Source: Burkholderiales bacterium
GTDB lineage: Bacteria > Pseudomonadota > Gammaproteobacteria > Burkholderiales > SG8-41
NCBI GenBank assembly: GCA_035259205.1
Contig: DATFWO010000099.1
Span: 812 to 64,811 of the forward strand
DNA: 64,000 nucleotides
Direction: 5' to 3'
Positions 24,454 through 61,449 of the stretch are shown here, piece by piece (position 1 is the stretch's first letter; each line of letters starts with the position of its first letter). The notes beneath the pieces were generated by a model. It was given only the letters and a program-made list of their open reading frames with translations. It was not told where the DNA came from and ran no database searches. A program made the position numbers and the translations under genes.

Positions 24454-24501
24454 GTCACGGCTCGGGTTACGAGTCGCGGATCACGGATCACCGATCTTCG
24501 G
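24454..24501. repeat. Tandem heptamer array (TCACGGA type)
   Basis: gtcacgg (24454) and gttacga (24466), then contiguous heptamers tcgcgga/tcacgga/tcaccga/tcttcgg at 24474-24501. Fills the spacer between two co-directional minus-strand genes. Confidence 0.7.
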
Positions 24502-24503
24502 TG

Positions 24504-25211
24504 TTATCCGCCCGCCGGCGCAAACCCCGTCATGCGCCAGCCGCTTTCGGTCTTGACGAAGCAGGCGCTGTGCTCGATAGCGCTGCGCACCTGTTCCTCG
24601 GGAACATAACCCTCACCGCTTTTTACTTGTACCTTCACCCAAAGTTGCTTCTCGGTCGGCACCTGGTTCGCGACCTCCCAGTCGGTGACGGCCACGATAT
24701 CGTATGAGAGCGTCTGCAGGGTTTTCGCATCGCTGCTGGGGGCCGCCTTCACCAGGACGTCGCGGGTAATGATGACCCCGTAGTCGTGTGGTATCAGGTC
24801 CTGCGGCCACTTGGCGAGCAGATATGGCGCACAGAGCTCGCGCGGCCCCTTGTCGCGCTTCAGGTAGGCGGACCCGAGAAACAGCGCGGCCTTCAGTTCC
24901 CGCCACAGCGGGCTGTCCGCCGCGGTCACATCCCATTGCTTCCTGAATTCCGGTATGCCTCGCTGGCGGTTCAGGCTCGAGCGTACGTTGCGGTCGAGTA
25001 TGCTCAACACGAACTTGAGATCGCGCTTTTCCACAGCGTTGAGCAATCGGTTCCGGAAGCTGATCCACGACGGGTCCGCGGCGGCCTCGTCTACCGGCTC
25101 GAGCTTGCGTTCCTGGCAGAAGCCCGCGGTCGACGCGATCATCAGCAGCGACAGCAGAGCGTGGACGATCTTCGGCGCTGCTCCGAATAGATGCATTGCT
25201 GGCTTCGACAT
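24504..25211 (-). CDS. Hypothetical exported protein
   Basis: Start trimmed to MSKPAMHLF... with a hydrophobic signal-like segment (LLSLLMIASTAGFC). No family recognised. Confidence 0.5.
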   Translation of the reverse strand: MSKPAMHLFGAAPKIVHALLSLLMIASTAGFCQERKLEPVDEAAADPSWISFRNRLLNAVEKRDLKFVLSILDRNVRSSLNRQRGIPEFRKQWDVTAADSPLWRELKAALFLGSAYLKRDKGPRELCAPYLLAKWPQDLIPHDYGVIITRDVLVKAAPSSDAKTLQTLSYDIVAVTDWEVANQVPTEKQLWVKVQVKSGEGYVPEEQVRSAIEHSACFVKTESGWRMTGFAPAGG

Positions 25212-25310
25212 GGCGCGGCGCTGGGGACTTTGCATAGTGCTAGAATCGACGCTGCATCCTACCACTACGCGGACGCCGGCAACAATTTCCGGCGCCACCG
25301 CATTCCGCTC

Positions 25311-25532
25311 ATGGCGCGCATCGAAATCAAGTCAGAGATAACCGGCACGGTATGGAAGGTGCATTCCAAACCCGGCGACAAGGTGGAATCGGGGGATACG
25401 CTCGCCGTGATCGAGTCGATGAAGATGGAAATTCCCGTAATCACGGAGGACGCCGGCACTGTCAGAGAGATTCTGGTCAAGGAAAAGGATGCGGTAGCGG
25501 AAGGCCAGGTCGTCGCCGTGCTCGACGGTTGA
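25311..25532 (+). CDS. Small biotin carboxyl carrier / biotinyl-domain protein (73 aa)
   Basis: Complete biotinyl domain with the canonical attachment motif IESMKMEIPV. Start trimmed to MARIEIKSEITG. Confidence 0.85.
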   Translation: MARIEIKSEITGTVWKVHSKPGDKVESGDTLAVIESMKMEIPVITEDAGTVREILVKEKDAVAEGQVVAVLDG

Positions 25533-25573
25533 CGGCCAAAGGGGAAGGAAGGCCCCGCGCAGCTACGATCTAC

Positions 25574-25609
25574 CAGTCATGCTCTATCAGTCACGCATCA
25601 CCAGCCACG
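25574..25609. repeat. 14-bp-period array, core CAGTCACG (3 units)
   Basis: cagtcatg at 25574, cagtcacg at 25588, cagccacg at 25602. Exact 14 bp spacing. Spacer between the biotin carrier and carboxyltransferase genes. Confidence 0.75.
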
Positions 25610-25622
25610 CTTCATCAAAGAC

Positions 25623-27158: not shown

Positions 27159-27163
27159 AGAGC

Positions 27164-27295
27164 GTGATGAGTAATGGGTGATGAGTGATGGGCAAAATCG
27201 TAAGTTGAACTGTTGGCTTACTACCAGAAGAAACAATCTAGCGCGACCAAGCCCTCGCTAGAGGGCAGTTCTACTCATTACCCATCACCCATCAC
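27164..27295. repeat. Mirror heptamer arrays (GTGATGR x4 / complement x3) flanking a central hairpin
   Basis: gtgatga gtaatgg gtgatga gtgatgg at 27164-27191. Complementary ctcatta cccatca cccatca c at 27273-27295. Perfect hairpin gccctc-gcta-gagggc at 27251-27266. Confidence 0.8.
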
Positions 27296-27296
27296 G

Positions 27297-28646
27297 ATGT
27301 TCAATAAGATAGTCGTTGCGAATCGCGGTGCTGTCGCTGCTCGCGTAATCCGTGCATTAAACGAGATGGGGCTACGCTCCGTCGCGGTCTATTCCGAGGC
27401 GGATGCCGGGGCGCCCTACCTGGAGCTGGCCGGCGAGTCCCATGCGATCGGCCCGGGACCTGCGCGCGAGAGCTATCTCAACCAAGATCGATTGCTTGAA
27501 GTGCTGCGCGAGTCACACGCCGACGCGCTTCATCCGGGGTATGGCTTTCTATCCGAGAATGCCGGGTTTGCGCGGCGCGTCAACCAGAGCGGCGCGCGCT
27601 TTGTCGGTCCGTCGCCGCGGTGGATAGAAGCGATGGGCCACAAGACCCAGGCCCGGGAGCTCGCGGCGCGCTACGGCATGCCCATGTCGAAGGGCTCGGG
27701 GATATTGCCGGAAGAGAGGGAGGCGATCGTGGCGGCAGCGCGCGAGATCGGGTTTCCGGTGCTGGTGAAACCGGCAGGCGGAGGGGGTGGCATCGGGATG
27801 CTGCCGGCGGCGGACGAATCCGCGCTGCTCGGCGCGGTCGAGCGCTCTCGATCCATGGCTGCCCGCGGTTTCGGCACGTCCGAAGTCTTTCTCGAGCGGT
27901 TGATGGAGCGTCCGCGCCACGTCGAGTTCCAGGTCCTCGGCGACATGCACGGCGCCATGGTGCACCTCTACGAACGGGATTGTTCCACACAGCGCCGCAA
28001 TCAGAAGGTAATCGAAGAAGCTCCCGCACCTGGAATCGCGCGCCCGCGCGCCGTCGCGCAGGCGGAGCAAGTGGCCGGCATCGTGCGCGAAATGGGCTAC
28101 GACAATATCGGCACGGTGGAAATGCTGATGGAGACCGAAGGCGCGTTCAGCTTCCTCGAAATGAACACCCGGCTGCAGGTAGAGCACGGCGTGACCGAGG
28201 AAATCACGGGCGTAGACCTGGTGAAAGCCCAGATCCGCGCCGCCGCCGGTGAGAAGCTGGCGGATATTCTGCCCGCTGGGATAGAAGTGCGCGGTCACGC
28301 GATCGAGGCCCGCGTTTACGCGGAGGACCCGAAGAATTTCTTTCCCTCGCCGGGGCGACTCAGGGTTTTCCGCCCGCCGCAAGGTGGGGGCATACGGGTC
28401 GAAACCGGCTATGCGGAAGGCCGCGAGGTGACGCCGCACTACGATCCGATGCTCGCCAAGGTGATCGCTCACGCCGAAACGCGGGAGCAGGCGGCGGCGA
28501 GATTGGCTGAGGCGCTGGAAGCGTTTGCGATCGAAGGGCCGAAGGTCAACGTGCCCGCGGTGCTCGCCGTGCTGCGCTCGGAGCCGTTTTGCGCCGGGCG
28601 CGTGCACACCGGCCTGATTCCTGAAGTACTGGGGAGAAAATCCTAG
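27297..28646 (+). CDS. Biotin carboxylase (ATP-grasp, AccC-like)
   Basis: Start trimmed to MFNKIVVANRGAVAARVIRA. GYGFLSEN, KPAGGGGGIGM, EMNTRLQVEH and HA.EARVYAEDP motifs of biotin carboxylases. Confidence 0.9.
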   Translation: MFNKIVVANRGAVAARVIRALNEMGLRSVAVYSEADAGAPYLELAGESHAIGPGPARESYLNQDRLLEVLRESHADALHPGYGFLSENAGFARRVNQSGARFVGPSPRWIEAMGHKTQARELAARYGMPMSKGSGILPEEREAIVAAAREIGFPVLVKPAGGGGGIGMLPAADESALLGAVERSRSMAARGFGTSEVFLERLMERPRHVEFQVLGDMHGAMVHLYERDCSTQRRNQKVIEEAPAPGIARPRAVAQAEQVAGIVREMGYDNIGTVEMLMETEGAFSFLEMNTRLQVEHGVTEEITGVDLVKAQIRAAAGEKLADILPAGIEVRGHAIEARVYAEDPKNFFPSPGRLRVFRPPQGGGIRVETGYAEGREVTPHYDPMLAKVIAHAETREQAAARLAEALEAFAIEGPKVNVPAVLAVLRSEPFCAGRVHTGLIPEVLGRKS

Positions 28647-28737
28647 CCACGGAAACACACGGAAGGGCACGGAATTTTCCAGAAGAAAGCCGCTGACGTT
28701 TGGTGCAACCCTCCGCGTGATTCCGTGGTTCCGTGGC
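28646..28737. repeat. CACGGAA / TTCCGTG inverted array element, copy 1
   Basis: cacggaa at 28648, 28658 and 28668. Inverted ttccgtg at 28721 and 28729. The left arm is near-identical to 59815-59848. Confidence 0.8.
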
Positions 28738-28759
28738 TGAATTGACTTCGTGATACGCA

Positions 28760-29464
28760 ATGGACGGGCGTAAACTGATTTTGGAGGCCAGGAAGCAGGG
28801 ACGGTCGGCGCTCGATGAGCTAGCGGGCAAGCAATTGCTTGCGAGTTACGGCATTGCTGTGCCGAAATCCCTCGTAGTCCGCGATGCAGCGCAGGCGGCT
28901 TCGACGTGCGCGACCCTCAAGCCGCCGCTGGTGCTCAAGGTGATGTCGCCCGACATCCTCCACAAGAGCGACGTGGGCGGCGTCAGAGTCGGTCTGAACA
29001 GCGGCGAAGCGATCGTCGAGGCGATCAGGGAGATGATGGCCACGCCGCAGATCGGCAACGCGCGCATCGACGGCTTTCTGGTCGAGGAGATGGCGCCGGC
29101 GGGGCAGGAGATCGTCATCGGCGGCGTGCGCGATCCGCAATTCGGCCCGCTCGTCATGCTGGGGCTGGGCGGGCTGTTCGTCGAAGTTCTGGCGGATGTT
29201 GCATTCCGCATTTGCCCGATCACCGGGCTCGATGCCGAAGAGATGCTTGATGAGCTGAAGGGCGCTGCGCTGCTCGCCGGCGCGCGCGGGCGCAAGCCGG
29301 CGTCGCGTGCCGCCGTTTTGGATTCGCTGCTCAAGGTGGGTGGTGCGGGGGGCCTGCTGATGGGCTACGCGGACGACATCAAGGAGGCGGACATCAATCC
29401 GCTCGTCGTTTCGGAAACCGGCGCGATGGCGGTCGATGCGCGCTTTGTTTTAACCAAAAGGTGA
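28760..29464 (+). CDS. ADP-forming acyl-CoA synthetase, beta (ATP-grasp) subunit
   Basis: 234 aa ATP-grasp_5-type domain (KV.SPDILHKSDVGGV, ADINPL), as in NDP-forming acetyl-CoA synthetase beta subunits. Confidence 0.8.
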   Translation: MDGRKLILEARKQGRSALDELAGKQLLASYGIAVPKSLVVRDAAQAASTCATLKPPLVLKVMSPDILHKSDVGGVRVGLNSGEAIVEAIREMMATPQIGNARIDGFLVEEMAPAGQEIVIGGVRDPQFGPLVMLGLGGLFVEVLADVAFRICPITGLDAEEMLDELKGAALLAGARGRKPASRAAVLDSLLKVGGAGGLLMGYADDIKEADINPLVVSETGAMAVDARFVLTKR

Positions 29465-29579
29465 CGAGGTACGGGTGACGAAGATGCGGGTGACGAGATA
29501 CAGGTGACGAGATACGGCTGGCCCTGGTTGTAGGTCACCCTTATTCGTCACCCTTATTCGTCACCTTTATTCGGCACCT
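29461..29579. repeat. Mirror arrays: 4 x GTGACGA (14-15 bp period) and 4 x GTCACC (13 bp period)
   Basis: gtgacga at 29461, 29475, 29490 and 29504. gtcaccc/gtcaccc/gtcacct/ggcacct at 29534, 29547, 29560 and 29573. The first unit contains the upstream TGA stop. Confidence 0.85.
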
Positions 29580-29584
29580 CTTTG

Positions 29585-31069
29585 ATGAGCGAGAACGTAA
29601 TCGAGCGCTTCCGGCCGCTGTTCGAGCCGAAGACAGTGGCGGTCCTCGGCGCGTCGAGCCGCGGCGGGACGGTTTCCAACATCTTCATCCGCCGCATCCG
29701 TGAGTTCGGCTTCGAAGGAGCAATCTATCCGATACACCCGTCGGCCGAGAGCATAGACGGACTGCCGGCCTATCGCAGTCTCGCCGGCACGCCCGACGTC
29801 GTCGACTATGCGTTCATCGCGATTCCCGGTGGACAGATACCGTCCCTGCTCACGGAGGCGCGGGGACGCGTGCGATTCGCGCAGGTGATTTCCAGCGGAT
29901 TCGGCGAGGTCGACGAGGGCAGGCAGCTGCAGGACCAGTTGGTCGCGGCAGCGCGCGAGGGAGGCATGCGGCTGATCGGCCCCAACTGTCTGGGCCTCTA
30001 TTCGCATCGCGGCAAGGTCACCTTTACCGAGACCTGGCCGCAGGAGCTGGGCACGATAGGGGTCATTTCACAAAGCGGCGGGCTTGGCACGGACATCGTG
30101 CGCCGGGGAATCATCCGGGGCCTCAAGTACTCCGCCGTGGTGACTGTGGGCAATTGCGCTGACGTCGGGCCGAGCGAGCTGCTCGAGTACTATCTGGCCG
30201 ACGCGCAGACCCGCGTCGTCGGAATGTATATCGAATCGGCCGGTGACGGTCGGCGGCTGTTCGAGATGCTGCGCGCAGCGCAAGCGAAAAAACCGGTCGT
30301 GATCCTGAAGGGAGGACGCACGCGACTGGGCAAGATGGCCGCGGCCTCGCACACCGGCTCGCTTGCTGGCGATGATCGCGCGTGGGTCGCTCTGTCCCGG
30401 CAAACAGGGTGTGTCCTGGTGGAGACGCTGGATCAGTTCCTGGATGCGCTGCTCGCGTTCCAGACGCTCAAGCCGCGGCCGCAGCATCCCACGCGGGAGA
30501 CCGTGTTGTTCGGCAACGGCGGCGGGGCGAGCGTGCTGGCAACCGATACCTTTGCCCGCCTGCAGCTGGAGGTCGCGCCGTTCGCCGAACAGGCGCTGGA
30601 GGCGCTCGCTGCGCTCAAGCTGCCGCCCGGCAGCAGCATATCGAACCCGGTGGATACTCCGGTCAGCACGCTCCGCCACGAGGATGGGGCGGTCGCGGAA
30701 AAAATCCTCGAGGCGATCTACGGGGTTGGCCGCCCGCAGGCGCTGGTCATGCACCTCAATCTGTCCGCGTTCGTGGGCCGCACCCAGAGCGACGTCCTGG
30801 GCAACCTCATGGAGATCGCGCTGCGAGTGCAGGCGCGCTATCCCGGGCAGGCGCACTTCATGCTGGTGCTGCGCGCGGACGGCGAGCCGGCGCTGGAAGA
30901 GCGCAAGCGGCAGTTCCGCGCCCGGGCGACGGCGCTCGGGATACCCGTGTACGACGAGCTCGAGCACGCGGCCCGCGCGCTCGCGGCGCTGGCCTTTCAC
31001 GAGCGGTTCCTGCATTCGAGAGCATTGACCGTGACTCGTGACTCGACCCCGATTACGGAAGCTTGTTAA
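29585..31069 (+). CDS. ADP-forming acyl-CoA synthetase, alpha (CoA-binding/ligase) subunit
   Basis: CoA-binding N-terminus (VAVLGASSRGG), GPNCLG, and the phospho-histidine loop AASHTGSLAGDD. ATG at 29585 preferred over the TTG at 29582 in the ORF track. Confidence 0.85.
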   Translation: MSENVIERFRPLFEPKTVAVLGASSRGGTVSNIFIRRIREFGFEGAIYPIHPSAESIDGLPAYRSLAGTPDVVDYAFIAIPGGQIPSLLTEARGRVRFAQVISSGFGEVDEGRQLQDQLVAAAREGGMRLIGPNCLGLYSHRGKVTFTETWPQELGTIGVISQSGGLGTDIVRRGIIRGLKYSAVVTVGNCADVGPSELLEYYLADAQTRVVGMYIESAGDGRRLFEMLRAAQAKKPVVILKGGRTRLGKMAAASHTGSLAGDDRAWVALSRQTGCVLVETLDQFLDALLAFQTLKPRPQHPTRETVLFGNGGGASVLATDTFARLQLEVAPFAEQALEALAALKLPPGSSISNPVDTPVSTLRHEDGAVAEKILEAIYGVGRPQALVMHLNLSAFVGRTQSDVLGNLMEIALRVQARYPGQAHFMLVLRADGEPALEERKRQFRARATALGIPVYDELEHAARALAALAFHERFLHSRALTVTRDSTPITEAC

Positions 31070-31141
31070 GCTGCCGTTAAATCACGCCTCATCAGTCGCG
31101 CCTCGCCAGTCACGAACCATCAGTCACGCATCAGCAGTTAC
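31031..31141. repeat. GTGACTC x2 followed by 5-unit 14-bp-period CAGTCACG array
   Basis: gtgactc at 31031 and 31038 (inside the 3' end of the upstream CDS). aaatcacg, cagtcgcg, cagtcacg, cagtcacg and cagttac at 31079, 31093, 31107, 31121 and 31135. Confidence 0.8.
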
Positions 31142-31147
31142 TTTCCC

Positions 31148-40970: not shown

Positions 40971-41020
40971 CGTCCCAGGTACATCGTCCCAGGTAGGGCG
41001 TCCCAGATGCAGCGTCTTAG
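40971..41020. repeat. 14-bp-period array, core CGTCCCAG (4 units)
   Basis: cgtcccag at 40971, 40985 and 40999, and cgtcttag at 41013. Begins 1 nt after the CocE/NonD stop codon. Confidence 0.8.
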
Positions 41021-41221
41021 AGGAGGCGCCGGTTTCAAATTGCCAGGGCGCTCAGCTGGCCGGGTCCTGTCGGAACGGCTGACGCCTGAAACTTTCCCCT
41101 CCTGCAAATAGGAGGGTGGCGCGCGTAGGCCCGCCGGGGTGGTCAGGTTAGTGGAAGAAACCGCGAAGCTGGAAGGCCTGCTTCTGCCTTCCTCCTTCCG
41201 CCGTCTGCCTTATGTAGTGAC

Positions 41222-43088: not shown

Positions 43089-43126
43089 GTGACGAGCTGC
43101 GCGGTGACGAGTTTCACGGTGACGAG
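43089..43126. repeat. 15-bp-period array, core GTGACGAG (3 units)
   Basis: gtgacgag at 43089, 43104 and 43119, in the spacer between the cupin and thiolase genes. Confidence 0.75.
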
Positions 43127-43300
43127 CTGAGCGGTAGCGCGTCGAGGGGCGGGGTAGTGCCCCGTTTACGTGTCTGCCTGAGGGTCAGATCACGTTCCTC
43201 AAGCGAAGCGTGTTGCGAGGATGTCAGACCGTCATGTCAAGACCTGAACCCCGTCAACGCCTGCGCCTGACCGCTGACGCCCGACCCCTGACGGCCTCGT

Positions 43301-43774: not shown

Positions 43775-43963
43775 GTTCCCTCCCTGTGACGCGAACCTTG
43801 ATATGGGGAGCCGAAATTGCTGATGACTGGAACAGAAGCATAGCGGAAACACGAGCCCGGTTCCTCCCGCTCGCTTCTTACATCGGGCGAAAGGGGTGCG
43901 TCCCCTATGGTCCCCGCGAACGGTGCTACGATGCCACGTCCGTTTTTCCGGGGGAGCTTGCGA

Positions 43964-45579: not shown

Positions 45580-46767
45580 TCAGAATACGTCAACTGTCGG
45601 GAAGTGCGGTTCCCCCGTGATGCAATCCCAGAGATAGATCGCCAACCCGACGTCGCCGGTCCATAGCGAGAAGCGGCCCCTCCCCAGCTCGGCGCGCGCC
45701 TCGCGGCACTGCGCGATCGCCGTCATCGCGAACGCGCGGGCGCGCTCCAGCCAGATCGAATCGCCCGTCCTGCCATGAAGCTTGAGGAAAGCGTATCCAT
45801 TGCCGCCGGTGCCGTGGCAGAGGTTCGACCCCTTGGCGAGGGGCCCGGCTGACCAGGTGAACGTGCCGCCTTCGACGAGTAGCGCATCAAGCTCGGGCGA
45901 CGCGAACGGCGTGTCGGCGAACGTCGTCACCATGCCTGGCGCGCCGTGACAATGCTGACAAAGGGCCGGCGGGTTCGTCCGCGTCGCGACCGGACGCCAC
46001 GTCGCGCCGAGCTCGGACCGGTACGCCGTCGCGGCCAGCGTGCGGGGCACGGCGCCGGCGACCGTTGCGCGCTGGGAGGCCGTCAGCCATTCCCAGCCCC
46101 TGAGCAGCGGAATCATGTTGCCCGCGTATCCGTGCACGGGCCCGAGCCAGGGCTGCACGTTGCCGTAGAGGTCCACGTTCCACAACGGGCCGAGGACCGT
46201 CTCCTCGAGGTCGTCGAGCAGGCGCGCGGCCTGCGCTGAGAACAGGTGGCGCCACAGCGGCTCGTGCGTCATCGCGTGCATGTGGATGCAGGCCAGCATC
46301 GAGCCCGACAGCCCCCACATCAGCTCACGGATCGGCAGCGCGGCGTTCCTCGCGCAGCGCTCGTATACGAGGTCGGCGATCTCCGCCGACCCGCCGATTC
46401 GCATGGCGACGAGCGCGGTGCCCAGGTCGCCGAGCAGGAAGGCGCCGTGCGCCGCGTAGTCTCCCCGGGTAGAGAGTTCGGCGGCGCCGACCTCGAGCAA
46501 CCGCGGCAGGACGGGACCGAAGTCCAGGCGCGGGTGCGTCACGCCCGAGCGCGCGAGATAGTCGAGCCCCCAGATCACGCCCGCGGCCCCGACCCAGAGG
46601 TTCGCCATCCCGTCCGGCAGTCCATCCTCGCGGGGGTGCGACGGCCAGAGGCGCTCGGCGTCGAAGTGCGCAAGCGCATCCGCAACGATCTCCTCGATCG
46701 CCGCGGACGCATCGACCGGGCTCCACGGGGTCGACCGCAACGGGACGTGCCGGGAGGGGTCGATCAT
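45580..46767 (-). CDS. LanC-like (lanthionine synthetase C-like) protein, stand-alone
   Basis: 395 aa alpha-toroid-like repeat pattern with G-rich repeats. Zn-ligand-type motifs CQHCHGAPG and NLCHGTGGNGYAF, plus SLWTGDVG near the C-terminus. Confidence 0.75.
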   Translation of the reverse strand: MIDPSRHVPLRSTPWSPVDASAAIEEIVADALAHFDAERLWPSHPREDGLPDGMANLWVGAAGVIWGLDYLARSGVTHPRLDFGPVLPRLLEVGAAELSTRGDYAAHGAFLLGDLGTALVAMRIGGSAEIADLVYERCARNAALPIRELMWGLSGSMLACIHMHAMTHEPLWRHLFSAQAARLLDDLEETVLGPLWNVDLYGNVQPWLGPVHGYAGNMIPLLRGWEWLTASQRATVAGAVPRTLAATAYRSELGATWRPVATRTNPPALCQHCHGAPGMVTTFADTPFASPELDALLVEGGTFTWSAGPLAKGSNLCHGTGGNGYAFLKLHGRTGDSIWLERARAFAMTAIAQCREARAELGRGRFSLWTGDVGLAIYLWDCITGEPHFPTVDVF

Positions 46768-46798
46768 CGGGCCTCGCTGCCCCGCAACCTGAAAAATG

Positions 46799-46878
46799 GT
46801 GATGAAGGACAGTAATGAATACTGGTGACGTACATCATCATTTTCTCATCACTTCTTCTCAGCACCAGTTCTCATCGC
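46799..46878. repeat. Mirror 13-bp-period arrays (GTGATGA type / TCATCAC type)
   Basis: gtgatga at 46799, gtaatga at 46812, gtgacg at 46825. Then catcatc, tcatcac, tcagcac and tcatcgc at about 46833, 46846, 46859 and 46872. Confidence 0.7.
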
Positions 46879-48190: not shown

Positions 48191-48300
48191 GGCAAGGAGG
48201 AAGGCAGAAGGCGGAAGGAGGAAGTAACGGCCGGCGTCGTCACTGTGGAACTCGTCACCGCGCAGTCGTAACTGCAACGCTCATCACCGCGAAGCCGCGA
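48189..48300. repeat. Purine-rich heptamer array (AAGGNNG) followed by 14-15-bp-period CGTCAC array
   Basis: aaggcag aaggcgg aaggagg aagtaac at 48201-48228, with looser units from 48189. cgtcac, cgtcac, cgtaac and catcac at 48238, 48253, 48267 and 48282. Confidence 0.7.
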
Positions 48301-51517: not shown

Positions 51518-51536
51518 TTCGCTCCTCCTCGTGAGG

Positions 51537-51680
51537 CGTGACTACTAAAACGTGACTGATACAGCGTGACTGATGAATCGTGACTGTTAATGCGTGGTCT
51601 TCTGGGGGCGCTCTTTCAGATACGTTACACCAGTCACGCCGTTTCAGTCACGTGGCACCAGTCACGCATCAACAGTCACG
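51537..51680. repeat. Mirror-symmetric array: 5 x CGTGACTG then 5 x CAGTCACG, exact 14-bp period
   Basis: Direct units at 51537, 51551, 51565, 51579 and 51593 (degenerate). Inverted units at 51617 (degenerate), 51631, 51645, 51659 and 51673. The 16-nt centre is 51601-51616. The 6-nt inter-core segments are not complementary between arms. Confidence 0.9.
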
Positions 51681-52608: not shown

Positions 52609-52618
52609 GGCGATAGGA

Positions 52619-52716
52619 CGCGACTGGTGAAGCGTGACTGGTACGACGTGACTGATATAACGTGACTGCTGTGGCGTTCTTGTCGCACCCGTTGCCTGCT
52701 AAGCCCGATCAGTCAC
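52619..52716. repeat. 14-bp-period array, core CGTGACTG (4 units) plus one distal inverted unit
   Basis: cgcgactg at 52619, then cgtgactg at 52633, 52647 and 52661. Single cagtcac at 52710-52716. Confidence 0.85.
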
Positions 52717-52719
52717 TGT

Positions 52720-57537: not shown

Positions 57538-57577
57538 CGTCACCCGTTAGTCATCACTAAGTCATCACTCGTCACCC
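57538..57577. repeat. 10-11-bp-period array (GTCACC / GTCATCAC units)
   Basis: cgtcaccc at 57538, gtcatcac at 57550 and 57561, cgtcaccc at 57570. Spacer between the MBL hydrolase and Bug genes. Confidence 0.65.
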
Positions 57578-57602: not shown

Positions 57603-58673
57603 TTACAGATCAACCACGGTCGAAAGGACAACCTGCGCCGGAGCGAATACGCGCGCCCAGTCCTCTCCCGTCTTGGGTCCTCCAAACGCCGGGATCACGA
57701 TCTGCGCTCTGGTCGCTCGGACGAGGGCAACGTTGTCGGAAAAACGAGGATGCACGTTCCACCGGATGTACTTTGCACGCCCGCTTCGCGTCGTGCGCTC
57801 GGCCGGCGTCCCCGGCGGCAGGTAGCCGGTGAAGATGATATCGGGCGCCGAGGCCTGCTCGTACTTTTCGATCAGACGAGCGGCCATGCCGGCTGTCCCA
57901 TCGGCCGTGGCGGCGAGCGAGATGCCGCGCCCGCCGATGGCAGGCGCGTCGCGGGCGATGCGAGCGAGCTCGCTCCGCACCCCAGGCAGCGCGCTCTCCG
58001 CGTGCTCCGCCCCCAGCCAGCCGGTCGCCTGTCGCACGGCGTCATCGAGGGCCGGCGCGACGCCCTTGCGCACAAAATGGAGCGCGATCTCCGGCGCGCG
58101 CCCTCCGGGAGGGAGCGGCATCAGCACGTCTTTTCCGAGGCACTGCTCGTCGAGCATGCGCGCGCATTCAGTGAGCGGCGTCTCGTATGAGCCGTATGAT
58201 GTGTCGATAATCACGATGCGTGCCGGAGGTGGCGGGTCGTAGGCATAGATCAGGGACTCGAAGCAGCAGTCTCCCATGTAGAGCACGCCGCCGCAGGTAT
58301 CGACGTGTATCCACACGCCTCCGGGCGCGTGTCCGTTGCGGCCCGTGGTGACCTTGAATCCCATTACCTCGGTCGTGTCGTGCAGCGGAAATATCCCGCC
58401 GATCGCATGGTCTTTCAGCAGGTGCGCGAGTGGCTCGCTCAGATACAGCGGCGGATTTCCGATATCGGGCAGGAGCTTCAATCCTCCGGCGTGATCGCGG
58501 TGCGCGTGCGACAGCAGCAACGCATCAACCTTGCCGACGCGGGACACGTCGGGCCACAGACCGGGTTGGGGGCCGTAGCCCAGGTCCAGGAGCAGCCTGC
58601 GGCCCTCCGCTTCCAGCAGAAAGCACGCCGGACCTTTGGCGCCGCCGCCGGATATTGCGGTTAGCAATCCCAT
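57603..58673 (-). CDS. MBL-fold metallo-hydrolase
   Basis: 356 aa with the HAHRDHAGG (HxHxDH) motif. Confidence 0.75.
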   Translation of the reverse strand: MGLLTAISGGGAKGPACFLLEAEGRRLLLDLGYGPQPGLWPDVSRVGKVDALLLSHAHRDHAGGLKLLPDIGNPPLYLSEPLAHLLKDHAIGGIFPLHDTTEVMGFKVTTGRNGHAPGGVWIHVDTCGGVLYMGDCCFESLIYAYDPPPPARIVIIDTSYGSYETPLTECARMLDEQCLGKDVLMPLPPGGRAPEIALHFVRKGVAPALDDAVRQATGWLGAEHAESALPGVRSELARIARDAPAIGGRGISLAATADGTAGMAARLIEKYEQASAPDIIFTGYLPPGTPAERTTRSGRAKYIRWNVHPRFSDNVALVRATRAQIVIPAFGGPKTGEDWARVFAPAQVVLSTVVDL

Positions 58674-58870: not shown

Positions 58871-58876
58871 CTCCTT

Positions 58877-59872
58877 TCACTCAGCCTTTGCGCCCGACTG
58901 CTTTACAACGCGGGCCCATTTTGCGACTTCACTTCTCAAGTAGGCGCCGAATTCCTCCGGCGAAGAGGGAGCGGGCTCGAGGCCTTGCGCGGTGAACTGT
59001 TCGTTGAGCCCGATGGAGCTCAACACCTTTGCTGTTTCCAGGTTCAGCCGGGCTATCACGGGCCGGGGTGTAGCGGCCGGTCCCAGCAATCCGTACCAGG
59101 TGCTGAATTCGTAGCCGCGCACGCCAGCCTCGTCCATGGTCGGGACTTCCGCAAAGAAGGGCGAGCGTTTTGATGTGGTAACGGCCAGCGCTCGTATTCT
59201 GCCGGCTTTTATCTGGGGCAATGCGGAGGCCATGGTCGAGATCACGGTTTGCACGTGTCCGCCCATGAGATCCGTGAGCGCCGGCCCCAGCCCCTTGTAG
59301 GGAACGTGGACCAGCTCGACCCGGCTCATCGTGCTGAGCAGCTCGGTCGCGAGATGTCCCGCGGTTCCCACTCCGCCTGATCCGTAGTTGATCTGGCGCG
59401 GCTTGGCCCTCGCGAGGGCCAGGAGGTCGCGGACCGACCGTGCCGGCACTGACGGATGCACGACCAGGACGCTGGGCTGCCGCCCCAGGAGCGTGACCGG
59501 CGCAAGGTCCCTCAAGGTGTCGTACGACAGCCTCGGGTACAGCGTCGCGTTAATCGCCAGGCTGATGTTGTTGACGAGCACGGTGTATCCGTCGGCAGGC
59601 GCCTTGGCCGCGAGGTCCGTTCCGATCGTGCCGCCGGCGCCGCCCCGGTTGTCGACGATGACCGTTTGGCCGAGCTCCTCGCCGAGCCGCTGCGCGACGA
59701 TGCGGCCGACGATGTCGTTGCCGCCGCCGGGCGGGAAGGGGACGATCAGGCGGATGCTTTTCGCCGGATAGCCAAGCTGAGCGCCCGCCGGTGGCGCAAC
59801 CAACATCAATAAGGCTGCGGAAACGCACGGAAGGGCACGGAAATTTCCCGCGGCGCGAATGATTCTGCTCAT
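58877..59872 (-). CDS. Bug/TctC-family substrate-binding protein
   Basis: GYPAKSIRLIVPFPPGGGND, YGSGGVGTAGH and VPYKGLGPA motifs. Start at MSRIIRAAG is uncertain (no clear SD); the signal-peptide codons overlap a DNA repeat arm (59815-59848). Confidence 0.8.
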   Translation of the reverse strand: MSRIIRAAGNFRALPCVSAALLMLVAPPAGAQLGYPAKSIRLIVPFPPGGGNDIVGRIVAQRLGEELGQTVIVDNRGGAGGTIGTDLAAKAPADGYTVLVNNISLAINATLYPRLSYDTLRDLAPVTLLGRQPSVLVVHPSVPARSVRDLLALARAKPRQINYGSGGVGTAGHLATELLSTMSRVELVHVPYKGLGPALTDLMGGHVQTVISTMASALPQIKAGRIRALAVTTSKRSPFFAEVPTMDEAGVRGYEFSTWYGLLGPAATPRPVIARLNLETAKVLSSIGLNEQFTAQGLEPAPSSPEEFGAYLRSEVAKWARVVKQSGAKAE

Positions 59873-59983
59873 GACTTGGGTGGAAGTCGGTGCCTTGGGT
59901 CTGCACCGCGCACGCACCGCCTGAAAAACGTCCGCCTCAGGAAGTGCTGTCTTGTCCGTGTGTTTCCTTGTGATTCCGTGGCC
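59815..59983. repeat. CACGGAA / TTCCGTG inverted array element, copy 2 (arms about 100 bp apart)
   Basis: Left arm ctgcggaaacgcacggaagggcacggaaatttcc (59815-59848) is near-identical to 28646-28680. The right arm (59950-59983) contains ccgtgtgtttcc and gtgattccgtggc, matching the complement and right arm of copy 1. Confidence 0.75.
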
Positions 59984-59988
59984 GGGAT

Positions 59989-61368
59989 CTATCGCGGCGA
60001 GTGGCGCTGGCCTGCAACGCGTGCAGCCTGGGCTGCCGGTTGGTCGAATTCAACATCCGGCAGTTTCTCGAGGCGCCACAGCACGGCGAGCAGCGCGCGC
60101 GCCGCCGGCTCGCCCACCACAGGCATCGCGAGTTCGAGGAACTTGTCATTGATATCGTCATCGGTGAGCGGCATCTCCGGATCGCCTTTGCGGGTCTCCT
60201 GGAAATGCGCGACCCGGCGCCCGTCGGCAAGCTCGATCTCGACTCTTGCGGCGCGCTGGCGGGGGAACGCCTTGGACAGCTCCGGGTCGGCCGTAAGCTC
60301 GGTTTTCTTCATGAGCTCCCGGATCGACGGGTTGCTGAGCTTGTCGGCGCCGTATGCGTCCAGCCGCACGGGACCGTACACCAGCGCGTGCGCGACGACA
60401 TAGGGCAGGCTGAACTTCGCCTGGTAATCGCCTTCGGGCTCGTAGTTATTCACGACGTCGAGGCCCCCCTGGTAAGTCGCTATGCGGATCTTGCGGACGT
60501 GCCGGTGGTCGAGCTGGTGCTTTTCCTTGAGCACCTGGACGGCATCGATCGACGGGAACGTGTGCCCGCAGCAACCGTGATTCTTGAAAGTGATGCGCGT
60601 GATGTGATAATCGGTTCCCAGCCCGCGCGTCGCCTTCGACCAGTCCGCGCCGGCGCTCATCGCCGCCCCGAAACCCACCTCGCCTTCCAGTATGTCGTGC
60701 ACGCCGGTCAGTCCTTTCGCCGCCCCCATTGCGGCGAGGGCTCCCGCTTCCGCGGCGTGCCCGGCATGCATGGGCTTGCTCATGGCTTCCGACCGGAACG
60801 CCTGCTGGAGCCCGGCGGCGAACGTTCCTACGGTGCCCAACGCGTTCATGAACTGCTCGCGGTCGCAGCCGAGCACCGTCGCGGCCGCTGCGGCGGCGCC
60901 AAAGCAGCCGACGGTGCCGGTGGTGTGCCAGAACTTGTAGTGCGAAGGCATGACCGCATCCCCGATGCGCGTCGAGACCTCGTAGCCTACGATTACACCG
61001 CGCAGAAACCGCTCACCGCTCGCGCCCTGCGTTTGTGCGGCGGCGAGCGCTGCGGCGATCACCGGCGCGCCAGGGTGATACACGGCGTCGCGCCAGATGT
61101 CGTCGAACTCCACTGCGTGAGAAGCTGCGCCGTTGACGAGCGCAGCCGCGCGCAGCGTGGCGCGGCGTCCCGAGCCCAGGCGCGCCTTCCCGCGATCGAG
61201 CTCCTCCGCGAGCGCCTGCTCGAGGAGCGTCGCGGGCGGCACGCGGCTCCCGGGCAGGAGCGAGGCGTACCAGTCGATCACCGCGCGCTTCGCGTGGTGA
61301 ATGACTTCCGGCTTCAGATTCGCGGTCTGTTCCTTGACCGCGTAGTCAGCGATGGTTTGCAGCAGCAT
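59989..61368 (-). CDS. MmgE/PrpD family protein (2-methylcitrate dehydratase-like)
   Basis: 459 aa, two-domain MmgE/PrpD pattern (NGAASHAVEFDD, HPG...AAALA). Confidence 0.85.
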   Translation of the reverse strand: MLLQTIADYAVKEQTANLKPEVIHHAKRAVIDWYASLLPGSRVPPATLLEQALAEELDRGKARLGSGRRATLRAAALVNGAASHAVEFDDIWRDAVYHPGAPVIAAALAAAQTQGASGERFLRGVIVGYEVSTRIGDAVMPSHYKFWHTTGTVGCFGAAAAAATVLGCDREQFMNALGTVGTFAAGLQQAFRSEAMSKPMHAGHAAEAGALAAMGAAKGLTGVHDILEGEVGFGAAMSAGADWSKATRGLGTDYHITRITFKNHGCCGHTFPSIDAVQVLKEKHQLDHRHVRKIRIATYQGGLDVVNNYEPEGDYQAKFSLPYVVAHALVYGPVRLDAYGADKLSNPSIRELMKKTELTADPELSKAFPRQRAARVEIELADGRRVAHFQETRKGDPEMPLTDDDINDKFLELAMPVVGEPAARALLAVLWRLEKLPDVEFDQPAAQAARVAGQRHSPR

Positions 61369-61398
61369 GGTGGTTCTCCGGAGAGCGGGGCAGATAAG

Positions 61399-61449
61399 GC
61401 GACTCAGGTGAAGCGGCTCAGACAGGGCGGCTCAGACAGCGAAGCCTGA
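61399..61449. repeat. 14-bp-period array, core GCGGCTCAG (4 units)
   Basis: gcgactcag at 61399, gcggctcag at 61413 and 61427, gaagcctga at 61441. Spacer between the Bug and MmgE/PrpD genes. Confidence 0.8.

Follow-up and report, generated by a model that had tools for sequence, protein, structure and literature searches.

Intercistronic arrays in the window

The window is a 64 kb stretch of DNA from an uncultured Burkholderiales bacterium of soil or groundwater. Approximately 15 of its spacers, all between 24.4 and 61.5 kb, bear short-period tandem arrays that form a true family filling gaps inside probable operons; the arrays of the preliminary description are thereby confirmed, at a count slightly below the one it gave (at least 16 spacers). 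The six spacers between 1 and 24 kb are free of arrays, and similar arrays are found in relatives. Four hairpin-bearing junctions, termed J1 to J4, belong to a carboxylase / acyl-CoA-synthetase operon; z values compare predicted folds with shuffled sequence unless another quantity is named.

24454..24496, minus strand: weak heptamer array, GGTGATCCGTGATCC on the transcribed strand, flanked by gene 24504..25298 (no Pfam match) and the GDPD gene 23494..24444; the sole arm whose complementarity to the 3' tail of 16S rRNA clearly exceeds the compositional expectation (z -4.9)
25575..25616, plus strand: single pyrimidine-type array, CAGTCACGC x3, 14 nt period, no mirror, ending 6 nt upstream of the carboxyltransferase gene start (25623); unstructured by prediction (z +1.7)
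27163..27296, plus strand: hairpin spacer J1, carboxyltransferase to biotin carboxylase; 5' arm GTGATGA x4 (27164-27192), 3' arm CATCACC-type (27270-27296); stem from 5 nt past the TGA stop to the last base ahead of the ATG at 27297 (start assigned by Pfam domain position); minimum free energy -55.3 kcal/mol, z -5.2, 0/200 shuffles as stable
28646..28740, plus strand: hairpin spacer J2, biotin carboxylase to ATP-grasp subunit; 5' arm CACGGAA x3, 10-11 nt period (28647-28677), 3' arm TTCCGTG x2 (28717-28737); base helix includes the stop codon (TAGCC paired with GGCTG); -43.7 kcal/mol, z -2.4
29455..29584, plus strand: hairpin spacer J3, ATP-grasp subunit to CoA-ligase subunit; 5' arm GGTGACGA(N6) x4, 14 nt period (29460-29517), its first unit containing the TGA stop; 3' arm GTCACCCTTATTC x3.5, 13 nt period (29534-29578); ATG at 29585 directly past the stem; -61.2 kcal/mol, z -6.2
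31018..31145, plus strand: hairpin spacer J4, CoA-ligase subunit to Fe-alcohol dehydrogenase; 5' arm of TGACTCG-type heptamers (31026-31045) within the final codons of the upstream ORF; TAA stop (31067) in the conserved loop motif GCTTGTTAAGC; 3' arm AGTCACGC x4-5, 14 nt period (31082-31143), ending 4 nt from the ATG at 31148; -36.1 kcal/mol, z -2.5
40969..41016, plus strand: single array CGTCCCAG(N6) x3.4, 14 nt period, no mirror, in a convergent spacer, overlapping the TAG stop of the peptidase S15 gene (40968-40970); unstructured by prediction (z 0.1)
41181..41211, no strand assigned: heptamer array CTTCCGC x4.4, adjoining the stop of minus-strand gene 41222..41743
43078..43137, minus strand: 15 nt array x4, CGAGCTGCGCGGTGA on the plus strand, transcribed strand pyrimidine-rich, ~60 nt upstream of a thiolase-like gene start (43016); z +0.5
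43260..43293, minus strand: 14 nt array x2.5 (CCTGACGCCCGACC), 7 nt past the stop of cupin gene 43301..43852
46798..46876, minus strand: hairpin within the 5' leader of the LanC-like gene 45580..46767, where the spacer is divergent; GGTGATGA-type units (46798-46834) opposite TCATCAC x3.4 (46835-46876), the GTGATGA arm being the 5' arm on the transcribed strand, as elsewhere; -29.2 kcal/mol, z -2.1
48194..48224, plus strand: Shine-Dalgarno-like heptamer array AAGGAGG x4.4, 3 nt past the TAA stop of a luciferase-like monooxygenase gene and ~89 nt ahead of the likely cupin gene start (48313); anti-Shine-Dalgarno complementarity z -1.95
51533..51680, minus strand: strongest hairpin of the window, between EamA transporter and alpha/beta hydrolase genes; GCGTGACTG(N5-6) x4.4 (51536-51596) opposite CAGTCACGC(N5-6) x4-5 (51614-51680); unpaired GAGGAGGAG Shine-Dalgarno sequence between stem and start at 51517; -71.9 kcal/mol, z -8.8, 0/200 shuffles as stable; core conservation P = 0.016-0.028
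52617..52716, minus strand: CGTGACTG(N6) x3.7 (52617-52668) and one CAGTCAC (52710-52716); on the transcribed strand a lone GTGACTG past the stop and four CAGTCACG units, the last 8 nt from the start (52608); no stable hairpin when folded against shuffles (z 0.14)
57538..57577, minus strand: mixed units CGTCACC / AGTCATCAC x2 / CGTCACC; on the transcribed strand GGTGACG and GTGATGACT, ending 5 nt from the TctC gene start (57532)
59955..59980, minus strand: 10 nt array TCCGTGTGAT x2.6, CACGGAA-type on the transcribed strand, beginning 8 nt past the stop of a PrpD-like gene
61399..61441, minus strand: single array GCGGCTCAG(N5) x3, 14 nt period, CTGAGCCGC on the transcribed strand, 30 nt upstream of a PrpD-like gene start with a GGAG Shine-Dalgarno sequence in between; z +1.1

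Over the whole window, the spacers, 4.4 kb in total, contain 14 arrays with a Tandem Repeats Finder score of at least 40 (3.2 per kb), and the 59.6 kb of coding DNA contains 4 (0.07 per kb), a density ratio of ~47. One of the latter four, AAGGAGG x4.4 at 48194-48224, counts as coding only through an over-extended ORF start and is actually intergenic. When the spacers are shuffled with dinucleotides preserved (n = 100), the mean is 0.09 arrays and the maximum 1; the arrays are thus well above chance. Autocorrelation, a check suggested at the outset, peaks in the spacers at lag 14, with 0.307 for all of them and 0.333 for those of 24.4-64 kb; lag 28 (0.292) and lag 7 (0.288) come next, over a baseline of ~0.26; coding DNA shows period 3 only.

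Thirteen of the 15 array spacers lie between co-directional genes. The preliminary description had stressed this placement, which is correct but not clearly above the window background (13/18 array-free spacers). Its statement that arrays often adjoin stop and start codons is borne out by tabulation of the co-directional spacers, with the upstream stop within 12 nt of the array in 10/13 and the downstream start within 9 nt in 8/13. It had also noted that TGA-containing cores place stops in all three frames; the arithmetic is right, but such blocking does not set the array spacers (8/13) apart from ordinary, array-free ones (6/13).

All seven cores named previously are present at their loci. 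They are partly common to several loci and not simply locus-specific as had been proposed: CAGTCAC/GTGACTG occurs in 15 copies over five spacers, 31-fold above coding DNA, GTGACGA in 13 copies over five spacers, and CGTGACT is enriched 42-fold. The reported period of 7 or 13-15 bp describes most arrays of the window; two (28647, 59955) have a 10-11 nt period, and relatives build the same architecture from 8, 9 and 10 nt units. The layout of conserved core plus variable remainder is only modestly supported (P<0.035 in 3/10 arrays; Fisher combined p 0.0095). The suggestion that 14 bp units are double heptads is weak for the arrays of the window, with 34% identity between half-units, though evident in a related locus (L004).

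Hairpins formed by paired arrays

A mirror array of the reverse-complement core is present in 7/15 spacers, one of them partial, in keeping with the earlier estimate of about half; approximately half of the arrays lack one. The array and mirror start at 27164/27270, 28647/28717, 29460/29534, 31026/31082, 46798/46835 and 51536/51614, with the partial pair at 52617/52710. Six of these seven spacers are predicted to form spacer-spanning hairpins (z -2.1 to -8.8), of which three are more stable than every shuffle (z -5.2, -6.2 and -8.8) and three have z of -2.1 to -2.5. Array-free control spacers have z ~0, except 595-744. The value for that array-free spacer is -2.9. The existence of paired arrays as conserved, stop-anchored hairpins goes beyond what could be seen in the preliminary description.

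Twelve spacers of the window and related loci have z below -4. Their predicted stems start at -6 to +8 of the stop codon in 10/12, and end 0-5 nt before the start codon in six, 7 nt before it in one and 10-29 nt before it in the rest. The stop codon is thus the anchor of the modelled hairpins, which usually extend close to the start codon; about half of the strongest come to within 10 nt of it. The hairpin at 46798-46876 occupies a 5' leader position with no stop codon upstream.

Hairpin orientation is fixed relative to transcription. In counts that take in minus-strand operons, the 5' arm is richer in purines than the 3' arm in 21/22 hairpins; TGA occurs 36 times in 5' arms versus 11 in 3' arms, and TCA 2 versus 33 times. 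The sense RNA fold is more stable than the antisense in 11/22 hairpins, and the seven G-U pairs of the J2 helix are no more frequent than A-C mismatches (five). Selection for RNA structure and for DNA structure are therefore not distinguished by these measures. Two spacers of relatives (L024 J4, L047 J0) each contain two non-complementary arrays.

Conservation in related genomes

Comparison of orthologous spacers, as had been recommended, reveals the same architecture at the same junctions with other units and cores. Many related MAG contigs show array hairpins at the four junctions of the carboxylase / acyl-CoA-synthetase operon, with units of 7-10 nt and differing cores, even where the proteins share only 65-80% identity. 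The (GTGACTC)n arrays of L003, L002, L001 and L047 are orthologous to J4. At J2, the core pairs across genomes are CACGGAA:TTCCGTG, CACAGAG:CTCTGTG, CGCCAAG:CTTGGCG and CGCAAAG:CTTTGCG. In the J2 base helix of nine genomes, 88.9% of cells are paired, a share that drops to 26-42% once the partner is displaced by 1-3 columns, and 6/13 pairs show two-sided changes. Such changes fill 16 cells versus 5.3 +/- 2.0 after shuffling (0/500 shuffles reach 16), the orthologous comparisons not being phylogenetically independent. By these alignments, the paired arrays are conserved, co-varying hairpins whose arms keep complementarity through two-sided changes.

The arrays are not hypervariable, and their conservation exceeds that of synonymous sites. 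Four strains from separate samples, 99.8-99.9% identical, differ at 47 columns, 47/47 of them coding; the 1445 bp of spacer contains no variants among them and no copy-number difference. Over 2.1 kb, L038 and the window share 93.5% identity, and in the J3 spacer 119/120 positions agree. In L048, where coding DNA is 76-77% identical and third codon positions 57%, J3 retains the architecture of the window with arms 92% and 85% identical and an unrelated loop; the differences include whole 14 nt units gained or lost. The same junctions are tight or overlapping (-1 to 8 nt) in distant relatives. They are also tight in a close relative, L051, and the elements are therefore dispensable.

Two-sided changes could also be made by template-switch (quasipalindrome) correction, which requires no selection for pairing. 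There are hints, too, that some other factor reads the sequence of the arms, since their conservation, unpaired segments included, exceeds what pairing alone needs. Selection on the arrays as repeat-derived spacer elements is very probable, and their main reading is that of lineage-specific intercistronic elements made from simple-sequence repeats.

Possible origin and function

Xanthomonas and Burkholderia, with their heptamer repeat arrays, provide the nearest precedents. Xanthomonas GGGAATC arrays are 89-93% intergenic, mostly between co-oriented ORFs, and form 70-75 convergent pairs per genome (PMC4692102), a precedent for the array-plus-mirror form that had been described as matching neither REP/BIME nor STRR. 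Heptanucleotide long simple-sequence repeats are over-represented in Burkholderia, according to Mrazek 2007 as related in PMC4679880, and heptamer-derived satellites of 14 nt have been described (PMC6749651). As the preliminary description held, the arrays are neither REP/BIME elements, though proposed to work similarly, nor cyanobacterial STRR. They have no match in Rfam, and the array spacers of the window contain no terminator-like or promoter-like signals. The RAYT or Y1 transposase partner that had been envisaged is not encoded in the 64 kb window, to which the search was confined, nor is any other transposase; one could be located elsewhere in the genome.

Under the main reading, the 7-15 nt units are laid down and then reshaped as whole units are added or lost, a slipped-strand type of turnover as proposed for heptanucleotide repeats elsewhere among bacteria. 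About half of the spacers have a purine-rich, often TGA-containing array at the upstream stop and its reverse complement just ahead of the downstream start, and the arms are predicted to pair in the transcript as a single long interrupted stem-loop across the spacer. In mRNA such hairpins may behave like the intercistronic stem-loops of the REP/BIME type. With the stop codon inside the stem or adjoining it, each ribosome that completes the upstream gene would have to melt the structure, transiently freeing the pyrimidine-rich 3' arm and an adjacent start codon that is usually without a Shine-Dalgarno sequence. Initiation at the second gene would thereby be made dependent on translation of the first, as in the RNA-unfolding model of translational coupling, for which a hairpin between phage f1 genes VII and IX is described (PMC12548453). 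Coupling would then span spacers of 80-180 nt in place of the tight ATGA-type junctions of relatives. Protection from 3' exonucleases and stalling of terminating ribosomes would be compatible side effects, the latter as shown in E. coli, where REPs stall ribosomes if they lie no more than 15 nt from a stop codon (PMC12306157). Arrays that lack a mirror may give unstructured leaders, or be decayed or incipient halves.

The predicted effect on coupling is modest on average. With pairing blocked under a ribosome footprint at the stop codon, the start region is predicted to be more open, its unpaired probability going from 0.40 to 0.48 (paired Wilcoxon p = 0.002); at J3 of the window it rises from 0.25 to 0.55, and at J1 there is no effect (0.19 to 0.20), the arms re-pairing in another register. 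None of the six genes behind a start-adjacent pyrimidine-type array (25623, 27297, 28760, 29585, 31148 and 51688) has a Shine-Dalgarno sequence, which is not significant at a background of ~30%. A published screen, in which structure just past the upstream stop correlates negatively with coupling (PMC12548453), counts against the coupling reading. That coupling is the main role of the spacer hairpins is doubtful; the chances that the elements function as RNA structure are about even. The overall picture of repeat-derived intercistronic stem-loops under selection, REP/BIME-like in their working and possibly coupling the translation of neighbouring genes, is about evenly balanced between right and wrong. 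The conserved spacer hairpin arrays represent a variant of an already known type of bacterial repeat, for which a role between neighbouring genes is proposed.

Tandem arrays in intercistronic spacers

The tandem arrays are a real, non-random and conserved feature of this DNA. With spacer and coding sequence separated on a gene map built from third-position G+C, Tandem Repeats Finder (TRF, score ≥40) identifies 14 arrays in 4.4 kb of spacer (3.2/kb) versus four in 59.6 kb of coding sequence (0.07/kb). Shuffled spacers (100 dinucleotide-preserving shuffles) yield a mean of 0.09 arrays and a maximum of one. The spacer autocorrelation peaks at a lag of 14 (0.307 overall and 0.333 within 24.4–64 kb, with a baseline of about 0.26), lags 7 and 28 are the next highest, and coding DNA exhibits period 3 only. 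Units are 7–15 nt in length, including 7, 10, 11 and 13–15 nt, and TRF match levels are 72–93%. In co-directional spacers the arrays lie ≤12 nt away from the upstream stop codon in 10 of 13 cases and ≤9 nt from the downstream start codon in 8 of 13. The first 24 kb (window 1–24400) differ from the rest, as none of the six spacers of ≥35 nt found there carries an array, versus 15 of 27 in the remainder (hypergeometric p about 0.017), and the lag-14 autocorrelation is 0.223 as compared to 0.333.

The preliminary description had placed arrays with periods of 7, 13, 14 and 15 at particular sites, where TRF also finds them, and its view that the arrays exceed chance is borne out within the window by the TRF, autocorrelation and shuffle results. 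Its count of at least 16 array spacers is reduced to about 15, and the estimate that about half have a mirror array (a reverse-complement partner) agrees with the 7 of 15 observed. The cores (the conserved parts of the units) were said to differ between loci, but CAGTCAC/GTGACTG recurs 15 times in five spacers and appears 6 times in 59 kb of coding DNA; the spacer enrichment of this pair is 31–42-fold. Nor is the proposed preference for co-directional genes clear, since the proportion among array spacers (13 of 15) is not clearly higher than the window background (13 of 18). The partition of units into a core and a variable remainder is modestly significant (Fisher p = 0.0095), whereas their interpretation as double heptads is weak in the window, the halves sharing 34% identity there. 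At least some 13–15 nt arrays are double heptads, for instance that of a related locus, L004. Stop codons in all three frames, offered as a further characteristic, occur in 8 of 13 array spacers and 6 of 13 array-free spacers and are not distinctive of the arrays; a function as stop-codon trap was rejected on the same counts.

The window has a G+C content of 64% and an ordinary metabolic gene content, with hydrolases, an RND efflux pump, two carboxylase clusters and many TctC/Bug solute receptors beside a TctAB transporter. In the 64 kb, the TctC/Bug-family receptor domain is present in 12 genes (one truncated by the window start), and there are the one TctAB transporter, two paralogous carboxyltransferase genes (2739–4274 and 25623–27158), and two ATP-grasp_5 genes (28760 and 62636). 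The nearest relatives of the encoded proteins come from uncultured Burkholderiales and Betaproteobacteria MAGs (soil, groundwater, lakes) at 65–82% amino-acid identity, and one metagenome contig (L038) shares 93.5% DNA identity with the window over 2.1 kb. The RAYT (IS200/IS605-type Y1 transposase) suggested as a partner is absent from the 64 kb window, as Pfam scans of all called genes (about 59) reveal no transposase, integrase or RAYT.

Arrays also extend into coding sequence, as at 31026–31069, where the CoA-ligase-subunit ORF runs through the 5' arm with its last ~15 codons. Long-ORF calls run too far through arrays at 27213, 29582 and 47926. In a related contig (L001, 5557–5574), the third GTGACCR heptamer provides the in-frame stop, adding a short VTSDR tail to the protein.

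No match to Rfam 15 is found at the gathering score in the whole window, and no tRNA or tmRNA was found. The array spacers contain no terminator-like sites (a GC-rich stem followed by a U-run), with counts at or below shuffle expectation, and no sigma-70 promoter-like signals. CRISPR arrays and iterons were dropped as candidates on account of a period too short for them and of the many operon spacers occupied. A dispersed repeat of about 36 nt, CAGCTGRCCGGGTCCTGTCGGAACG..., is unrelated to the arrays and occurs at 41053–41088, 46887–46922 and 47113–47138 (inverted). The pair inverted around about 210 bp (46887–47138) is MITE-like, and the third copy falls in a convergent spacer at 41053. A G-rich direct repeat of about 60 nt, GACCGGGGG.GCGGGGGGAA.CGGGAAGGCTCCGATGATTTAGAGGAAGG, is located at 58700–58760 and 58795–58860 in the 203 nt spacer upstream of a metallo-beta-lactamase-fold gene (57603..58673), and has no Rfam match.

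Predicted hairpins in the window

Six of the seven spacers that contain both an array and its mirror are predicted to form a long interrupted hairpin on the transcribed strand. The operon junctions referred to here (J1–J4) and the three hairpins with the lowest z (fold energy relative to shuffled sequence) are as follows.

27163–27296, + strand: spacer J1, between carboxyltransferase and biotin carboxylase genes
28646–28740, + strand: spacer J2, between biotin carboxylase and ATP-grasp subunit genes
29455–29584, + strand: spacer J3, between ATP-grasp and CoA-ligase subunit genes
31018–31145, + strand: spacer J4, between CoA-ligase subunit and Fe-ADH genes
27150–27299, + strand: predicted hairpin at J1, -55.3 kcal/mol, z -5.2, equalled by 0 shuffles
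29455–29590, + strand: predicted hairpin at J3, -61.2 kcal/mol, z -6.2, equalled by 0 shuffles
51530–51675, minus strand: predicted hairpin, -71.9 kcal/mol, z -8.8, equalled by 0 shuffles

Three further hairpins in the window have z of -2.1 to -2.5. The conserved cores pair with the mirror cores and the variable segments form internal loops. The stem starts at or adjoining the upstream stop codon: the TGA stop at 29462 is inside the first unit, and the stop at 28644 is itself paired (TAGCC with GGCTG). At the other side the stem ends at or just 5' of the start codon, with the last paired base adjoining the ATG at 27297 and that at 29585. The spacer at 52605–52722, with a single mirror unit, shows no stable fold (z 0.14), and single arrays that lack a mirror are no more structured than their shuffles (z 0 to +1.7).

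Array-free control spacers have z near 0 in five of six cases. The exception (595–744, upstream of tctB) is predicted to form a spanning hairpin (-54.8 kcal/mol, z -2.9) in which the Shine-Dalgarno region of the following gene (GGAAGGAGGAGU) is paired with CUUCAUCCUCCUC.

Conservation at orthologous junctions

The four junctions of the carboxyltransferase–biotin carboxylase–ATP-grasp subunit–CoA-ligase subunit–Fe-ADH operon were traced through about 50 related contigs. In distant relatives, serving as outgroup, the genes overlap or are separated by 2–8 nt. In a large array-bearing clade the spacers are 80–180 nt and show the same architecture with other units (7, 8, 9 and 10 nt) and other cores, each core having its own complement: CGCCAAGGA...TCCTTGGCG, CACAGAGGA...TCTCTGTG, GTGAACGA...CGTTCAC. 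One relative with a GAAGGAT...ATCCTTC pair reaches -89 kcal/mol. Arrays are kept at the same junctions down to 65–70% protein identity. In the 12 spacers with z < -4, the stem starts within -6 to +8 of the stop codon in all but two, and ends 0–5 nt before the start codon in six, 7 nt before it in one, and 10–29 nt before it in the rest.

The base helix of J2 was aligned for nine genomes; the alignment is hand-anchored and fitted to the structure, and the sequences are related. In this alignment 88.9% of cells are paired, versus 26–42% with slid partners, and 6 of 13 pairs show two-sided changes. One pair is A-U in three genomes, G-C in three, C-G in two and G-U in one. Two-sided changes number 16 cells versus 5.3 ± 2.0 after shuffling (0 of 500 shuffles as high), a compensation that template-switch conversion could mimic. 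G-U pairs show no excess over A-C mismatches in this helix.

A (GTGACTC)n-type array is common to J4 of the window and of four related contigs (L001, L002, L003 and L047), which also have a loop motif, TTGYTAAGC, conserved among them. The junctions of L051, a close relative, are tight, so that loss of the elements is possible unless this relative never gained them. Two non-complementary arrays in one spacer are found at J4 of L024 and at J0 of L047.

Spacers of far greater size occur in some relatives. J3 of L049 (1860–2139) is 280 nt long with a predicted energy of -109 kcal/mol and a long extra palindrome between the arrays. In L048, two nested array hairpins of about 300 nt (3763–4071, -110 kcal/mol) lie upstream of the ATP-grasp gene, which there has other genes around it and stands behind a LytTR response regulator. 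Contigs from three MAGs titled 'uncultured Streptomycetaceae' or 'Bordetella parapertussis' (L002 and L049 in CAZQJF01; L009 and L020 in CAMDDY01 and CAMDLH01) carry a Burkholderiales-type operon with 66–86% protein identity and the array architecture. This suggests that the titles are wrong, through mis-binning or mislabelling.

Stability, constraint and orientation

Four contigs from different samples, 99.8–99.9% identical to one another, contain 47 variable columns, of which 47 are coding and none falls in the 1445 bp of spacer. Array copy number does not change among these four strains, nor at 93.5% identity. Hypervariable contingency loci were ruled out as a candidate, given the lack of polymorphism among near-clonal strains. 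Between the window and the relative at 93.5% DNA identity, 119 of 120 positions of the J3 spacer are identical. Differences in the J2 spacer lie mostly in the loop, and two stem changes keep or better the pairing. In the more distant L048, the J3 arms are 92% and 85% identical to those of the window, unpaired segments included, as compared to 76–77% for coding sequence and 57% for third codon positions, the arm values being somewhat inflated because repeats are easy to align. The J3 loop is unrelated in the two sequences, which also differ by the gain or loss of entire 14 nt units. The arrays look to be under more constraint than synonymous sites.

Of the 22 hairpin spacers, which include those of minus-strand operons, 21 have the purine-rich arm on the 5' side in the transcript. 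TGA occurs 36 times in 5' arms versus 11 times in 3' arms, and TCA twice versus 33 times. At least ten of the 22 junctions scored for polarity are independent. Predicted folding of sense and antisense RNA does not differ, sense being the more stable in 11 of 22. Polarity is the only evidence favouring action at the transcript or translation level over the DNA level, because the RNAs of both strands fold equally well.

Comparison with known repeats

The GGGAATC heptamer arrays of Xanthomonas are 89–93% intergenic, mostly between co-oriented ORFs and near the neighbouring ORF; each genome has 70–75 convergent pairs able to form a stem-loop, and arrays occur between the same genes in related species with varying length and sequence (Rehm et al. 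2015, PMC4692102, where the GGGGAYT heptamer arrays of Nostoc are also treated). The arrays described here are alike in lying between co-directional genes (13 of 15) and in being paired with a mirror (7 of 15). However, Xanthomonas has one dominant G-rich core per genome, studied as a G-quadruplex former, whereas here there are many cores and no G-tracts (runs of ≥3 G are absent from the window cores), units of 7–15 nt including 14 nt core-plus-spacer units, and a stop codon involved in the pairing. The hosts also belong to different classes, the present one being Betaproteobacteria.

Long simple-sequence repeats with 5–11 nt units are dominated by heptanucleotides and Burkholderia is among the richest genomes (Mrazek, Guo and Shah 2007, as summarised in PMC4679880). 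Satellites of 12, 14 and 16 nt derived from 6–8 nt units are described in Burkholderia, and (GATAGRA)n in Chloroflexus (PMC6749651). Common features are the heptanucleotide units, the order Burkholderiales, a proposed origin by slippage and the possible derivation of 14 nt satellites from heptamers. The 7, 10 and 11 nt arrays are head-to-tail runs longer than composition predicts and fall within the 1–11 nt unit range of this class, which the 13–15 nt arrays of the window exceed. Long simple-sequence repeats are near-perfect runs, often tied to hypermutability and genome rearrangement; in contrast, the present arrays are short (3–5 units), imperfect (TRF match 72–93%), without copy-number difference between strains, mirror-paired and anchored at stop and start codons.

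As first proposed, the arrays match neither REP/BIME elements nor STRR heptamers. The REP/BIME elements of enterobacteria and pseudomonads (including REPINs) are likewise abundant intercistronic or 3'-proximal hairpin-forming repeats, often in inverted doublets. They affect mRNA stability and, within 15 nt of a stop codon, also translation of the upstream gene (PMC12306157, PMC3733652). A REP is defined by a palindromic unit with a stem of 5–13 bp and a loop of 2–20 nt (PMC3733652), and comprises a 20–40 nt palindrome with an unpaired GTAG or CGTC head, one consensus being spread genome-wide by RAYT. Here the units are non-palindromic 7–15-mers in tandem without self-complementarity, the cores are many, and there is no head motif: GTAG is not found as a head in the arrays and CGTC appears only within the paired core CGTCACC. 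STRR heptamers of heterocystous cyanobacteria are noncoding tandem heptanucleotides, some of them in operons, such as GGGGATT between pecE and pecF (PMC4692102). They are defined cyanobacterial sequences (STRR1–3) in long near-perfect runs with few inverted pairs, unlike the present cores, which differ from the STRR sequences and belong to a betaproteobacterium (all best hits are to Burkholderiales or Betaproteobacteria MAGs).

MIRU elements (mycobacterial interspersed repetitive units) are tandem repeats in intercistronic operon spacers that touch the flanking stop and start codons, and are similar in this respect. Their units are roughly 40–100 bp with small ORFs bridging both genes, and their copy number varies between strains. 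Here units are 7–15 nt, copy number is stable, and ORFs from the repeated GTG of the J3 array end within about five codons. The TAACTGA heptamers of marine Beggiatoaceae, cyanobacteria and Bacteroidetes (MacGregor 2015, PMC4679880) are intergenic and TGA-containing, with 2–6 copies per set, mostly a few nt upstream of starts without canonical ribosome-binding sites, and a post-transcriptional role has been proposed. They consist of one fixed heptamer with one indirect repeat among 170 sets, whereas here cores are many, mirrors are frequent and the TGA-type array is on the stop-codon side.

What appears to be new is the presence of many cores in one genome, the use of 7–15 nt units in one architecture, stems that take in the stop codon and run to the start codon, covariation of the arms across a clade, and the demonstrated stability of arrays between strains. 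No published account of such elements in Betaproteobacteria was found in an incomplete search of the literature.

Possible function and alternative explanations

These repeat-derived elements are anchored to stop and start codons, kept complementary, conserved and oriented. Our best guess at their function is a stem-loop between cistrons that works at the RNA level and may also serve coupling. The elements would act in the mRNA: a ribosome ending the upstream gene would have to melt the base of the stem, which would free the pyrimidine-rich 3' arm and the start codon. The predicted stems touch both codons, as a coupling hairpin would. With a modelled ribosome footprint on the stop codon, accessibility of the start region rises from 0.40 to 0.48 (partition function, p = 0.002), although not in every case; the modelled effect is strong at J3 of the window (0.25 to 0.55) and absent at J1, where the repeats re-pair in another register. 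This modelled effect fits the RNA-unfolding model of translational coupling (PMC12548453), and data cited in the same review indicate that structure just after the stop codon can lower coupling. In E. coli, stop-proximal REPs stall terminating ribosomes (PMC12306157). Ribosome stalling and 3'-end protection are equally compatible roles.

None of the six genes behind start-adjacent pyrimidine arrays has a Shine-Dalgarno sequence, which is not significant against a background of only about 30%. Some cores (GGTGAT, GGTGAC and AAGGA) resemble the complement of the 16S rRNA 3' tail. A general function of the arms as Shine-Dalgarno or anti-Shine-Dalgarno mimics was rejected, as duplexes of the 5' arms with GGAUCACCUCCUUA are no better than those of their own dinucleotide shuffles (z +0.7 to -1.1), with exceptions at 24445–24503 (z -4.9) and in the AAGGAGG array (z -1.95).

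A more far-reaching form of the stem-loop reading is that an uncultured Burkholderiales clade swapped the overlapping stop/start junctions of many operons for an undescribed class of regulatory RNA element, a self-renewing hairpin with complementary tandem-array arms that bridges the 80–180 nt from stop to start and makes translation of the downstream gene, or access of Rho to the C-rich 3' arm, depend on upstream translation. We hold this to be rather improbable as a whole. If it were true, slippage of the repeat arms would let the stem grow, shrink or change register, and a dedicated factor might read the conserved periodic cores.

The arrays could also be a functionless by-product of replication or repair bias that slips 7–10 nt units, followed by intramolecular template switching that copies an array into its inverted complement, with confinement to spacers because coding DNA cannot tolerate them. 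Heptanucleotides are the commonest long simple-sequence repeats in many bacteria, Burkholderia being among the richest (PMC4679880, citing Mrazek 2007), and polymerase slippage has been proposed as their cause (PMC4679880, PMC4692102). Gain and loss of whole units, variation of cores between genomes, presence or absence among relatives (e.g. the tight junctions of L051), non-complementary pairs, single arrays and RNA folding without strand bias would all be expected. However, slippage does not readily account for 0 spacer variants among 47 variable columns in near-clonal strains, arms 85–92% identical where third codon positions are 57% identical, persistence at the same junctions to 65–70% protein identity, stems anchored at stop and start codons, or the single transcript polarity of 21 of 22 hairpins, and such an origin seems to us rather unlikely. 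Strand polarity and codon anchoring are not expected for a strand-symmetric function in the DNA, in which inverted arrays would be extruded as cruciforms or be bound by gyrase or nucleoid proteins, a proposal made for BIMEs, and would buffer supercoiling between genes, the transcript fold being incidental. The arms are almost purely Watson-Crick complementary and both strands fold equally well. In E. coli, IHF is reportedly recruited by REP/BIME elements (PMC3479197). Gyrase and DNA polymerase I also bind such elements. Cruciforms are impossible for single arrays, and we regard a DNA-level function as highly unlikely.

Alternatively, a multimeric RNA- or DNA-binding protein might read the cores (GTGAC-type, CACGGAA, AAGGAGG and others) as arrayed sites, with the hairpin controlling access; candidates would be S1, CsrA-like proteins, a cold-shock protein, a factor specific to this lineage, or Rho for the C-rich 3' arms. 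GGA, the motif typical of CsrA sites, is present in CACGGAA and AAGGAGG. Cores are conserved even in mirrorless arrays (e.g. 40969 and 61399), GTGACTG/CAGTCAC is enriched 31–42-fold and found in five spacers, unpaired inter-core segments are kept between the window and L048, and, in the case of the Beggiatoaceae TAACTGA repeats, S1, Csp and CsrA have been suggested (PMC4679880). Yet one 40 kb stretch has at least six unrelated cores, and cores change freely at orthologous junctions, which makes a single sequence-specific reader unlikely; the 5' arms are no more complementary to the 16S rRNA 3' tail than composition predicts, two arrays excepted, and the window contains no candidate partner gene. 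Recognition of this kind is judged unlikely. Core families common to several spacers of one genome might instead reflect REP/REPIN- or MITE-like mobile array pairs spread by a RAYT-type or other transposase encoded elsewhere. The arrays are inverted, hairpin-forming and intergenic like REP doublets (PMC3116915; PMC3733652) and differ in presence among relatives, but single units form no palindromic stem-loop and have no unpaired head (GTAG or CGTC). Unit number, spacing, loop and flanks vary among copies of one core, which have no full-length element in common. Orthologous arrays, with conserved loop motifs and conserved pairing of the stop codon, evolve where they are, and the 64 kb window encodes no transposase or RAYT. 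Mobility is a very unlikely explanation.

Implications

Arrays of this kind may mislead gene callers, as in the over-extended ORF starts and C-terminal ends seen here, and repeat and CRISPR finders run on MAGs may likewise be misled. Some bacteria are known to be rich in heptamer-type repeats beyond expectation, and what these repeats do has been a question since 2007. Comparisons within this lineage provide unusually clear evidence that such arrays can be structural elements kept by selection and not debris of mutation, in that the junction and the anchoring to stop and start codons are kept while both arms exchange their core. Should the hairpins gate translation or the fate of the transcript, they would offer a simple means of tuning expression ratios within operons, one that would evolve in small steps through gain and loss of units, and the purpose of bacterial heptamer arrays would become testable.
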